Shown here in pieces: positions 33,943 through 40,577 of a stretch of 40,577 nt of DNA. The translations under genes were made by a program, and so were the position numbers. The notes under the pieces are model-generated. The model was not told the origin of the DNA and did no database searches. It saw only the letters and a list, made by a program, of their open reading frames with translations. Source of the DNA: a virus; the IMG/VR virus record IMGVR_UViG_3300025164_000611. One strand, written 5' to 3'. Each line of letters starts with the position of its first letter. Position 1 is the stretch's first letter.

Positions 33943-34055
33943 TAATTTATTTTCTTTCTAAGAATTGGAGCACACATTGTAATCTTTCCATTCTCAACCA
34001 CAAATCCTGCACAAAGATATGATGTTGTTACTTGATATAATCCATCAGATAGCAA
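33906..34055 (-). CDS. 49-aa small phage protein not in the ORF track (TTG start)
   Basis: MLSDGLYQVTTSYLCAGFVVENGKITMCAPILERKINYWITIAKKCNIK; GAGG RBS. Confidence 0.5.
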   Translation of the reverse strand: MLSDGLYQVTTSYLCAGFVVENGKITMCAPILRKKINYWITIAKKCNIK

Positions 34056-34413
34056 CTTGATTCCTCTTGTGTTTTTGTCTCTTATACTCTAGAAATGCAA
34101 TAACTATACCTTCAGGACCACTACCAACCCTAACACCTACATTTGTTTTAATTGTTCTGCTATTAGTAATATTAGATAAATTATCAATAATTTCTGAGAT
34201 AGGAGTTTTCTTCTCAAGCAACATATTGACGAGAATATCAACAGCTTGTGCCCAAGCAGCTAAAGCTGATCCGGCTTTTCCGAATGTAGATATAACTTTA
34301 ATTGGGATATTTTCTTCAGATTCACAGATAGTATAATACAACACCCCATCTGGAGTATTTACCTCAATGGTCATACTTGGTAATTCTTCTCTATTTTTCA
34401 TACCCTTCTCCAA
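34045..34413 (-). CDS. Stand-alone TSCPD-like domain (class II ribonucleotide reductase C-terminal domain)
   Basis: T.EV.TPDG.LY.TI ... FGKAGS...AW.QA+ ... SGPEGI; no RNR catalytic subunit in the window. Confidence 0.65.
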   Translation of the reverse strand: MEKGMKNREELPSMTIEVNTPDGVLYYTICESEENIPIKVISTFGKAGSALAAWAQAVDILVNMLLEKKTPISEIIDNLSNITNSRTIKTNVGVRVGSGPEGIVIAFLEYKRQKHKRNQVAI

Positions 34414-34650
34414 CTACTCCTCTAATTCATTCTCGATAAAAACTGCATTTGGTAATGGAATTATTGTTGTATCTTGATTAAAGGAAACAGATTGTCCATT
34501 TTCTATGCTAACAGCATTAAATGCATAATTAGAGCTTGTTCTTAATTTTATATAAATATTACCATGAATAGATTTAAATGCTGATCCCGGCTTAACCCCA
34601 AAGAATGTTGGGTCTGGTCCTTTTACACTTTTAGCTCTTTTGATATTCAT
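34414..34650 (-). CDS. Small beta protein (paralogue of 35953..36195)
   Basis: F..+K....F....YIK...NAV....G...SFN..T.I pattern; GGAGG RBS. Confidence 0.55.
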   Translation of the reverse strand: MNIKRAKSVKGPDPTFFGVKPGSAFKSIHGNIYIKLRTSSNYAFNAVSIENGQSVSFNQDTTIIPLPNAVFIENELEE

Positions 34651-34674
34651 TATTCCCTCCTTAAGATTCCAACA

Positions 34675-34727
34675 TTCCCACGGCAGGAATTGAACCTGCT
34701 ATTAATAGTCTCCAGCTATCGTGGGAA
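34675..34727 (-). ncRNA. 53-nt tRNA-like element lacking the anticodon arm
   Basis: TTCCCACG / ATAG-CTGGAGA-CTAT / TAATA / GCAGG-TTCAATT-CCTGC / CGTGGGAA. Confidence 0.6.
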
Positions 34728-34740
34728 ACTATTTTACCTT

Positions 34741-34992
34741 TTATTTCTCCTCATCTTCCTCTTTCTCATCATCATCACCCCAAAATCCTGCAACTTCATC
34801 TTCTTCTTCCTCCTCATCTTCTTTTCCAATTTGATCAATAGGAATAACCATAGCAACTAACTCGTCACTCGGACTGAACCCTAATAGATTTAACTCACTC
34901 TTAAATTTACTTACTACCACATCTTCATCATCACTAATACTATCAACAATAAATTCGACGAAGGAATCAACGAACTCATCACTTTTTGTCAT
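34741..34992 (-). CDS. Highly acidic small protein (DNA-mimic candidate)
   Basis: 31 of 83 residues are D/E, with 6 K and no R; first gene after the strong promoter. Confidence 0.6.
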   Translation of the reverse strand: MTKSDEFVDSFVEFIVDSISDDEDVVVSKFKSELNLLGFSPSDELVAMVIPIDQIGKEDEEEEEDEVAGFWGDDDEKEEDEEK

Positions 34993-35610: not shown

Positions 35611-35949
35611 TTATTCCTCTACAAGTTTTCCTGTATTAGCTTCTACTTGAAAACAACGATCATCCCATAATTCTACCATACCAAAGTCTTTGATATTAGT
35701 TACTTCTAATCTTATACCTATATGTTTCTCACACCAATCTTGAATAATTGTTTTAATTTCCTCTACTGATTTACCATCCTGGTCCTCACAAATTCGAGCT
35801 GTGAATATTTTAACATCATTACCATCTGATAACCAACCAATTACTCTATCAACCATTAATGGAATAGGATCTCCAATATGGTCTATTCCTTTCCAACCAT
35901 AATATTCAGCTAGAGTACCATCCAAATCCACACCTATCCAAGGTTTCAT
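35611..35949 (-). CDS. HAD-superfamily phosphatase (PNKP 3'-phosphatase-like)
   Basis: WIGVDLDGTL, IFTAR, WDDR motifs. Confidence 0.8.
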   Translation of the reverse strand: MKPWIGVDLDGTLAEYYGWKGIDHIGDPIPLMVDRVIGWLSDGNDVKIFTARICEDQDGKSVEEIKTIIQDWCEKHIGIRLEVTNIKDFGMVELWDDRCFQVEANTGKLVEE

Positions 35950-39998: not shown

Positions 39999-40082
39999 TG
40001 CCCTCAAAGGGACTCGAACCCTTATTCTCTTTCGAGATGCAGATTTTAAGTCTGCTGCGTATACCAATTCCGCCATGAGGGC
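39999..40082 (-). tRNA. tRNA-Leu(TAA), CCA not encoded
   Basis: GCCCTCA acceptor; GCAGA-CTTAAAA-TCTGC anticodon arm; long variable arm; AAGGG-TTCGAGT-CCCTT T-arm; A73. Confidence 0.92.
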
Positions 40083-40386: not shown

Positions 40387-40480
40387 TGATCTAGCCAGAG
40401 ATTTGAACTCTGATACTAGGCGTTACCCATATCGGCGGTAACCTTTATAAATACCTAGTAGTCCAAGTTTACTAGTAACC
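40387..40480 (-). ncRNA. Atypical tRNA-like element: T-arm intact, no canonical anticodon loop
   Basis: CAGAG-TTCAAAT-CTCTG T-arm; TACTAGG/CCTAGTA stem enclosing GTTACC/GGTAAC; AAACTTGGAC D-loop-like segment. Confidence 0.35.
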
Positions 40481-40551
40481 TAATAAACTGTCCCAGACCT
40501 AGACCACGTAGCTAACGGGTTGCTTCTAAGTACGTTCTATTTAGCTATCTA

Positions 40552-40577
40552 TGGTCTAACTAGGGAATCGAACCCTA
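40552..40577 (-). tRNA. 3' part (T-arm and acceptor strand) of a tRNA or tRNA-like RNA, truncated by the window edge
   Basis: TAGGG-TTCGATT-CCCTA followed by GTTAGACCA; identity cannot be determined. Confidence 0.6.

Follow-up and report, generated by a model that had tools for sequence, protein, structure and literature searches.

What is a tRNA-like structure without an anticodon arm, lying between two phage genes, where did it come from, and does it have a function? The question is raised by a mini tRNA-like element of 53 nt (including the -1:73 pair) at positions 34675-34727, minus strand, of the window, by which we mean the whole 40,577-nt stretch of viral DNA that was analysed, IMG/VR record IMGVR_UViG_3300025164_000611.

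Genomic context of the element

The window comes from an uncultured tailed phage that encodes an SU10-type portal, an SNF2 helicase, UDG-PolA, ThyX and a PD-(D/E)XK nuclease, and neither DNA searches nor tblastn with the helicase found a close relative of it among cultured phages. Upon scanning 30 window ORFs against Pfam and PHROGs, we found no integrase and no tRNA-repair, tRNA-modifying or tRNA-metabolism genes. The locus is present in 20 runs, all of them DNA metagenomes from one groundwater/sediment campaign, and the nearest MAG (G001) is doubtful as the host of the phage.

The earlier note had placed the element between an acidic-protein gene and the next ORF, downstream of a strong promoter, and this placement held. 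A sigma-70-type promoter (TTGACA-17-TATATT, 11/12) lies at 35067-35039 on the minus strand, with its hexamers and spacing kept in two related phages, L191 and L192. The first gene after it is an 83-aa, highly acidic ORF (34741-34992, minus), which is hypervariable in the population and has no Pfam or PHROG match. The element starts 13 nt past the stop codon of this ORF and ends 24 nt ahead of the ATG of a 78-aa ORF (34414-34650, minus), whose Shine-Dalgarno sequence (34655-34662) begins 13 nt after the element; the 78-aa protein is an ORFan, found in this phage only, and matches PHROG 6570, of unknown function. Beyond it lies a TSCPD-domain gene (34045-34413, minus; Pfam PF12637), the conserved downstream synteny anchor of the locus. 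The strand that carries the element, minus, is the sense strand of every neighbouring gene, and no terminator was found between the element and those genes. An intrinsic terminator at the element itself was rejected, there being no U tract and no terminator match, and a stimulator of stop-codon read-through was rejected as well, the next in-frame stop coming 4 codons later.

Anatomy and fold

Upon folding the element with RNAfold, we recover as the MFE structure of 34675-34727 (minus) the plan that had been described for it from the letters, namely an 8-bp acceptor stem, a 4-bp stub, a 5-nt linker and a T arm, and the claim that every stem is perfectly paired also stands (17/17 Watson-Crick pairs, 8 of them in the acceptor). 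Read 5' to 3' on the minus strand, the acceptor 5' strand (positions -1 and 1-7; 34727-34720) pairs with 34675-34682 and is followed by the stub hairpin (34705-34719), with a 4-bp stem (34719-34716 with 34708-34705) and a 7-nt loop that contains GG (34715-34709). Then come an A/U linker of 5 nt (34704-34700), which corresponds to the variable region of the longer forms described below, and the T arm (34683-34699), with a 5-bp stem (34699-34695 with 34687-34683) and a 7-nt loop (34694-34688) that matches the GGTTCRANYCC motif. The acceptor 3' strand (positions 66-73; 34682-34675) abuts the T stem directly, and no CCA is encoded after it. Equivalents of G53, T54, Psi55, C56, R57, A58 and C61 are all present in the T arm; the anticodon arm, a 5-bp stem with a 7-nt loop, is absent, the 5-nt linker being all that lies between the stub and the T arm.

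The fold is both the MFE and the centroid structure of the 53-mer (-18.4 kcal/mol, z -2.99), with 1 of 200 shuffles being as stable, and the same cloverleaf-type fold is the MFE in an 86-nt context and in the variant carried by a second allele of the locus. Furthermore, we scanned 1.6 Mb of phage loci with a descriptor that demands an 8-bp acceptor, a 5-bp T stem and a TTCRANN loop. It matched 40 times there and never in the reversed control made from these loci and scanned on both strands, which excludes chance.

The mini element is not called as a tRNA. ARAGORN finds only a tRNA-Leu(UAA) at 39999-40082 in the window, and an Rfam scan of the window at gathering thresholds gives the same result, with tRNA-Leu as the only hit and the mini element uncalled. 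The bacterial, intron and mitochondrial (armless) modes of ARAGORN return nothing at the element; its pseudogene mode alone forces a call there, which we judged absurd. A permissive Rfam scan of the element yields only a 9.9-bit tmRNA-clan match to the T arm, and a covariance model built on the family described below scores it at 30.9 bits (E 0.0013), a value that does not discriminate, since ordinary tRNAs score similarly.

A long-arm tRNA-like family at the same site

Using protein homologues of the helicase and of the TSCPD protein, the latter of which led to L191 and L192, we found that related uncultured phages carry tRNA-like genes of 80-120 nt at the same site, upstream of the TSCPD gene. 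The elements of L191 (L191:2289-2404), L022 (L022:8531-8632), L024 (L024:7423-7523), L025 (L025:8603-8713) and L026 (L026:8262-8343) lie 7-40 nt after a stop codon, the upstream gene being the orthologous acidic gene in L191, L022 and L024, and a more distant phage has a long form as well (L036:3166-3285). Additionally, gene maps of the contigs carrying P0002, P0003/P0028 and of one P0029 contig leave gaps of 89 nt and 180 nt at the expected site. L192 (TSCPD 72% identical) has nothing of the kind between its acidic gene and its TSCPD gene, which directly adjoin each other; the element is thus accessory, and this lineage can dispense with it.

The long forms agree in their 5' acceptor-connector-D-stem sequence, and they have canonical T and D arms, the latter with GG. 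Where a tRNA would have its anticodon arm stands a helical hairpin of 22 to ~62 nt, and its sequence shows no relation from one phage to another. The earlier note had proposed a search for homologues and covariation, and it yields these same-site relatives with acceptor and T stems that covary: compensatory changes occur in 10 of 13 pairs over six members, and 78/78 cells are paired, a figure partly biased by a descriptor that enforced 7+5 pairs. The -1:73 pair, which was not enforced, is formed in 9/9 elements checked, including L191, as U-A, C-G or G-C; L068, in which this pair is unpaired and which is not counted as a member, was left out of that count. As judged by these pairings, the acceptor of the family is 8 bp long and forms with the T stem a stack of 13 bp. 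The G-U pairs, namely U1-G72 in L024 and another within the L025 D stem, are consistent with an RNA of the same sense as the genes, and the discriminator and -1 bases vary across the family. The mini element shares with the family its site and the 8-bp acceptor, and its 5' acceptor-connector-D-stem sequence is identical to that of L191 and 13/14 identical to that of L024; it is without the canonical G18 G19 D arm and without the long arm. By its homology to these longer tRNA-like genes, which occupy the same site in relatives, the mini element is tRNA-derived.

We also examined whether the long forms read as decoding tRNAs. The Rfam tRNA model gives three of them 38-45 bits, and ARAGORN without introns calls only L026. 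Intron-tolerant ARAGORN makes six calls on the orthologues with five anticodons (GCA, GAU, ACU, AUG, GGA and GAU again), an inconsistency that argues against decoding. Archaeal-type introns were rejected, the arms being continuous helices without a bulge-helix-bulge, and L026 and the L036 long form could descend from a tRNA-Ile(GAU).

Searches for further copies returned little. IMG/VR held nothing for the exact 3' half of the element, for the 78-aa protein, for the helicase as a single sequence or for the family pattern with a short or a long interior, and a metagenome scan with the helicase added only near-identical copies and distant phages. A fixed pattern of stub plus T arm gave 53 matches in IMG/VR, all of which were rejected, none passing the acceptor test and most looking like ordinary tRNAs with the pattern on the anticodon stem. 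In 596 Gb of species-representative genomes, a degenerate T-arm/acceptor pattern matched once, in an unrelated Roseibium tRNA cluster; the family is not a copy of a common host tRNA.

Origin of the mini form

The closest relative with DNA is L191 (TSCPD 81% identical, same promoter, orthologous acidic gene), whose 115-nt gene has an irregular hairpin of ~62 nt and no anticodon loop. Upon global alignment, the acceptor 5' strand and the connector are identical (13 nt), and the T arm and acceptor 3' strand agree at 24/25 positions, the sole change being purine-to-purine in the T loop. Between these two blocks the alignment places one gap of 54 nt, with CU microhomology, and the window there lacks the D loop together with the D-stem 3' strand and the greater part of the long arm; the junction falls between 34716 and 34715. 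About 16 nt of the long arm are left, and this remnant shows three small indels and two substitutions relative to L191. On this alignment the mini element is a deletion derivative of a longer tRNA-like gene, and since the long form of L191 has no anticodon loop either, the anticodon was lost before the 54-nt deletion. The earlier note had taken a full tRNA in relatives as the mark of a recent deletion; a longer gene is indeed present in L191, and 54 nt of it are deleted here, but that gene is not an ordinary decoding tRNA.

The same alignment bears on the identity of the stub: its 5' strand consists of the connector and one further base, the first of the D stem, and its loop and 3' strand align to the long-arm remnant. 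The GG of its loop is probably not G18 G19, coming instead from the 3' strand of the old long arm; an alternative alignment that keeps the D-loop GG needs more events, and the most parsimonious one was used. What had been read as a D-like arm is thus not a D arm, the real D loop and D-stem 3' strand falling in the deleted 54 nt, and the suggestion that the element mimics the tRNA elbow is weakened, because the stub is not a D arm and the D-loop GG is deleted. If only the 54-nt block is removed from L191, the MFE structure breaks the innermost acceptor pair and gives no clean cloverleaf; the extra small indels of the window yield the clean fold with its tidy 4-bp stub.

Furthermore, we observe an independent mini form in L036 (L036:691-742), which follows a stop codon at a distance of 8 nt and leaves 33 nt to the next ATG. 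This phage carries both a mini and a long form, and its helicase is only ~37% identical to that of the window phage. The plan of its mini form comprises an 8-bp acceptor, a stub able to form 4 bp and closing a 7-nt loop with GG, and, after an A/U linker, a T arm. The stub loop of the window is conserved neither in this mini form nor in L191, and this is relevant to whether the element could be a reduced decoder, that is, a D-armless tRNA whose 7-nt loop, C-U-GGA-G-A, serves as the anticodon loop for serine codons. The loop does have a pyrimidine at 32, U33 and a purine at 37, yet we regard such a decoder as very improbable: its stem would be only 4 bp and abut the acceptor without a connector, the ARAGORN modes named above find nothing, and the loop, besides varying between relatives, is by descent the remnant of a long hairpin that was not an anticodon arm.

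Constraint or recent deletion

Of the retained acceptor and T-arm positions, 37/38 are identical between the window and L191, at a locus where neither flanking spacer can be aligned between the two, the downstream genes differ, and the dS of five neighbouring genes is 0.65-1.5. Identity of this order despite such divergence implies either that the top half of the structure is constrained or that the deletion is recent. Were the whole path neutral, the observed identity would have P ~1e-10; with neutrality over all of the window's own branch P is ≤1e-4, over half of it ≤0.019, and with the deletion placed in the last 10-25% of the branch 0.08-0.66, a second figure for a quarter of the branch being 0.03-0.2. 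The earlier argument that perfect pairing sets the element apart from a decayed tRNA is consequently not enough by itself, a recent relic being tolerated in roughly the last quarter of the branch or less.

The population data are silent on selection, all sampled strains being nearly identical. A second allele, revealed by comparing contigs of 4 runs, differs by 34 substitutions and 9 gapped bases across 34730-34959, with the two alleles of the acidic gene lying ~12-15% apart and bounded by the promoter and the element. The differences stop 3 nt upstream of the element, which is invariant in the population, as are equally the 430 nt downstream of it, and the 53-mer is unchanged in nine near-identical contigs (L013-L017, L110). 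One contig of the nearest MAG breaks off within the T stem, at 34696, and together with the frequent overlap of phage att sites with tRNA 3' halves this end might suggest that a host tRNA gene fragment has been kept here as the phage attachment site, attP. The break is, however, explained by the two-allele bubble at 34700-34989, no integrase was found among the ORFs scanned, both acceptor strands are present and covary as RNA, and the only match to the degenerate pattern in species-representative genomes is the unrelated Roseibium cluster, so that an attP origin appears extremely unlikely.

The main competitor to a functional element is a recent relic, in which the long gene was inactivated by the 54-nt deletion and the stems are intact merely for lack of time. 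We consider this a serious possibility, although not the leading one. It agrees with the nearest relative having the long form, from which the window differs by a single large deletion, with the absence of the element from L192, which indicates that loss is tolerated, with a neutral history that is not rejected for a deletion in the last 10-25% of the branch, and with sampled strains too similar to reveal selection. Against it, the relic must be young, as the probabilities for neutrality over half or all of the branch indicate; the bare 54-nt removal misfolds L191, and it is the further indels of the window that give the tidy stub; and the independent mini form of L036 has the same plan and the same after-stop position in a distant phage. 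Moreover, every lineage already tolerated change in the variable arm, and function need not end with its loss.

Proposed function

We propose, tentatively, that the best reading of the mini element is a processing signal for RNase P and RNase Z of the kind known as t-elements in plant mitochondria, and it is favoured because the fixed placement after a stop codon and the terminator-free operon match those elements. RNase P, RNase Z and the CCA-adding enzyme require no more of a substrate than the acceptor/T-arm minihelix. The conserved and presumably functional module of the family is the top half, which the mini form keeps, because the long arm varies from 22 to ~62 nt without conserved sequence. 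The element would be transcribed inside an early operon from the promoter at 35067-35039, and the host tRNA-maturation enzymes would recognise its acceptor/T-arm minihelix. RNase P would cut on the 5' side and RNase Z or another 3' enzyme on the 3' side, possibly with CCA addition to follow, and the cleavage would separate the acidic-gene mRNA from the downstream cistrons and set their ends and stabilities. Several observations count against processing: the lost D loop helps form the elbow that RNase P and other enzymes sense, L192 does without the element, the population shows no special conservation of it, and an alternative fold that includes the Shine-Dalgarno sequence is about as stable.

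That alternative fold would allow a cis-acting translational switch, in which the cloverleaf alternates with a pairing of the T-arm and acceptor 3' strands to the Shine-Dalgarno sequence of the 78-aa ORF. When the Shine-Dalgarno sequence is included (95 nt), the MFE structure becomes a two-hairpin fold that sequesters it (-22.5 kcal/mol), the cloverleaf being the MFE without it (-21.8 kcal/mol), and the long-arm loop of L022 holds a run resembling an anti-Shine-Dalgarno. Nonetheless, the 95-nt fold has a weak z-score (-1.65), its first hairpin uses 34730-34732, bases that differ in the second allele, for which the cloverleaf is the MFE, and the downstream spacer and gene are not conserved in L191. 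A switch therefore seems quite improbable.

A further explanation is an anti-defence decoy, in which an abundant early RNA mimics the acceptor end and soaks up toxins or sensors that target the tRNA acceptor/T-arm, offering no anticodon loop. The element adjoins a hypervariable, acidic early gene, a position typical of anti-defence functions, the top half is the conserved module, and the acceptor sequence is kept beyond mere pairing in the window, L191 and L024, which fits sequence-specific recognition. On the other hand, no defence system, toxin or binding partner was identified, none of the 30 window ORFs scanned was recognised as a tRNA-repair or tRNA-modifying gene, L192 has no such element, and the variable discriminator and -1 bases make no single aminoacylation or toxin identity evident. 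A decoy is in our judgement unlikely, and the narrower idea of the earlier note, a decoy that escapes anticodon nucleases, found no specific support.

The processing reading can be widened to the family. It is conceivable, though on balance doubtful, that these elements form a class of phage ncRNAs built on a tRNA scaffold, with a conserved top half placed after stop codons and an exchangeable long hairpin, the top half alone being sufficient for the selected function, be it RNase P/Z punctuation or an acceptor-end decoy. The long hairpin would then possibly be an effector, antisense or protein-binding module. If such a class exists, phages use tRNA mimicry, for mRNA processing or counter-defence, in a manner so far documented only in organelles and eukaryotic systems. 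Processing of the mini form, if it occurs, would mean that the tRNA-maturation enzymes of the host punctuate an early operon of the phage by way of tRNA mimics. In full-text literature searches we found no description of anticodon-less tRNA-like RNAs in phage operons and none of the long-arm family with its 8-bp acceptor. The locus offers a natural series at one site, from a 115-nt long form through the 53-nt mini form to no element, which shows how a mini form arises and makes it testable which parts of the tRNA fold processing or decoy activity needs. For annotation, the implication is that tRNA finders overlook elements of this kind, and their long-arm relatives too, or give them wrong calls.

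Comparison with known systems

tRNA-like processing signals are established for mitochondria, where they belong to the tRNA-punctuation model reportedly put forward by Ojala and colleagues in 1981, and for some eukaryotic RNAs. mascRNA, from MALAT1, and the TMERs of murine gammaherpesvirus 68 are tRNA-like, non-aminoacylated RNAs; they bring in RNase P and/or RNase Z, which cleave the longer transcript of which they are part. The TMERs are a case of a virus that uses tRNA mimicry for processing. In contrast to the mini element, mascRNA and the TMERs are eukaryotic and have a four-arm cloverleaf with a degenerate anticodon arm, and there is no sequence relation. Among bacterial RNAs, the Y-RNA-like YrlA, which is said to have been described by Chen and colleagues in 2014 and to occur also in phages, reportedly has a tRNA-like module with acceptor, D and T arms and no decoding anticodon. 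Its topology differs from that of the mini element, the Ro-binding stem being made by the two RNA ends and the tRNA-like module lying distal to it; the window showed no Ro/Rsr gene. Additionally, the early RNase III sites of T7, for instance the one after the acidic anti-restriction gene 0.3, define mRNA ends. They resemble the present case in placing a structured RNA after the first acidic early gene of a polycistronic transcript that is driven by a strong host-type promoter, but they are long hairpins cut by RNase III, and the analogy is functional only.

The tRNAs of Lak megaphages carry short, 'enigmatic' inserts in the anticodon region (Devoto et al. 2019, PMC6784885). The long relatives described here are similar in sitting in or near tRNA genes, in carrying anticodon-region inserts and in scoring as tRNA, whereas they differ from Lak and ordinary phage tRNAs in that the orthologues have no consistent anticodon and no bulge-helix-bulge and the mini form has no anticodon arm. 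Allo-tRNAs, known from environmental bacteria and phages, have an 8/4 or 9/3 acceptor/T configuration, and some have been proposed to be regulatory (Mukai et al. 2017, PMC5389517). They share with our family an acceptor stem of more than 7 bp, but have a 12-bp branch, an anticodon arm and a decoding role, whereas the family has 8+5 = 13 bp and no anticodon loop.

The closest parallel is with plant mitochondrial t-elements, whose borders coincide with mRNA ends made by RNase P and RNase Z, some of which gain a non-encoded C or CCA (Forner et al. 2007, PMC1920247). Those elements are organellar, ~74 nt long, with cloverleaf-like arms and mapped ends, whereas the present one belongs to a phage, measures 53 nt, and has an 8-bp acceptor in a 13-bp acceptor/T stack and a re-formed stub where the D and anticodon arms would be. 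What the two have in common is a non-decoding tRNA-like fold, the GGTTCRANYCC motif in the T arm, and a location near ORF ends in a polycistronic transcript.

Allelic variation of the acidic early gene and the spacer in relatives

We found that the acidic early gene exists in two alleles within the same samples, which differ across window positions 34730-34959 by 34 substitutions and 9 gapped bases. The pair forms a bubble in the assembly, the limits of which are the conserved promoter on one side and the tRNA-like element on the other. The pattern resembles that of a cassette undergoing diversification or recombination, as would be expected of an anti-defence gene.

The spacer between the stop codon of the acidic gene and the tRNA-like element differs between the window and L191, the closest relative, which carries a long tRNA-like gene. 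In L191 an 11-nt unit, repeated three times in tandem, fills this spacer (L191:2249-2288), instead of which the window has a spacer of 13 nt. In another relative (L022:8560-8600), the long arm that takes the place of the anticodon arm has a 13-nt terminal loop carrying the anti-Shine-Dalgarno-like run ACCUCC. The long arms of the other relatives have no motif in common.

Other features near the promoter and in a related phage

Two genes upstream of the promoter, a 112-aa ORF (35611-35949, minus strand) begins with a DxDGT motif. Against PHROGs it weakly matches the phosphatase portion of polynucleotide kinase (E 1.8e-4), and it has no Pfam match; it may encode a HAD-type phosphatase. Separately, a related phage contig (L026:413-472) has a match to the type III hammerhead ribozyme with an E-value of 3e-5 and 40.1 bits, the latter below the gathering score of 48.5.

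tRNA-like elements at the window's right end and the nearest MAG

Further odd tRNA-like elements were observed on the minus strand in the rightmost part of the window (40387-40577). One consists of a T arm and an acceptor 3' strand truncated by the window end (40550-40577), and a second T arm lies at 40391-40407, with its acceptor partner far upstream, near 40499-40506. The truncated element is complete in the copy of this region on a contig of the nearest genome, the MAG G001, where it spans 64 nt (L010:5580-5643), starts 8 nt past a stop codon, has an eighth pair G-1:C73 and a 7-bp hairpin, and is without a D stem. The window and this contig diverge from 40384 onward.

G001 (1.4 Mb; loci L194-L216) contains the phage only as separate contigs. 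An intron of 10-30 nt was called in 8 of its 22 tRNAs, in some cases off the canonical position 37/38, half of the tRNA genes (11/22) are 89-115 nt long, and the RNase P RNA match is weak (40 bits). The tRNAs of G001 have an archaeal look, whereas the promoter and the tRNA-Leu of the phage are of bacterial type and the phage also has Shine-Dalgarno sites. G001 is therefore unlikely to be the host, and its association with the phage probably reflects co-binning.

Unusual tRNA-like genes in other phages and in a cellular genome

tRNA-like genes in which the acceptor and T arm are intact and the middle is oversized or irregular were found in many other phages, reached via the SNF2 helicase, including L037:5169-5257, L044:8302-8393 (also in L046 and L066), L088:9059-9162 and L032:2237-2330. 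Non-canonical tRNA-like genes seem to be common in these uncultured phages. Among cellular genomes, the T-arm and acceptor pattern of the family gave a single hit, on a Roseibium aggregatum contig (L270:1203-1275). The 74-nt tRNA-like gene at this position, directly followed by another tRNA gene, shares with the phage family the unusual A-U connector that follows the acceptor.
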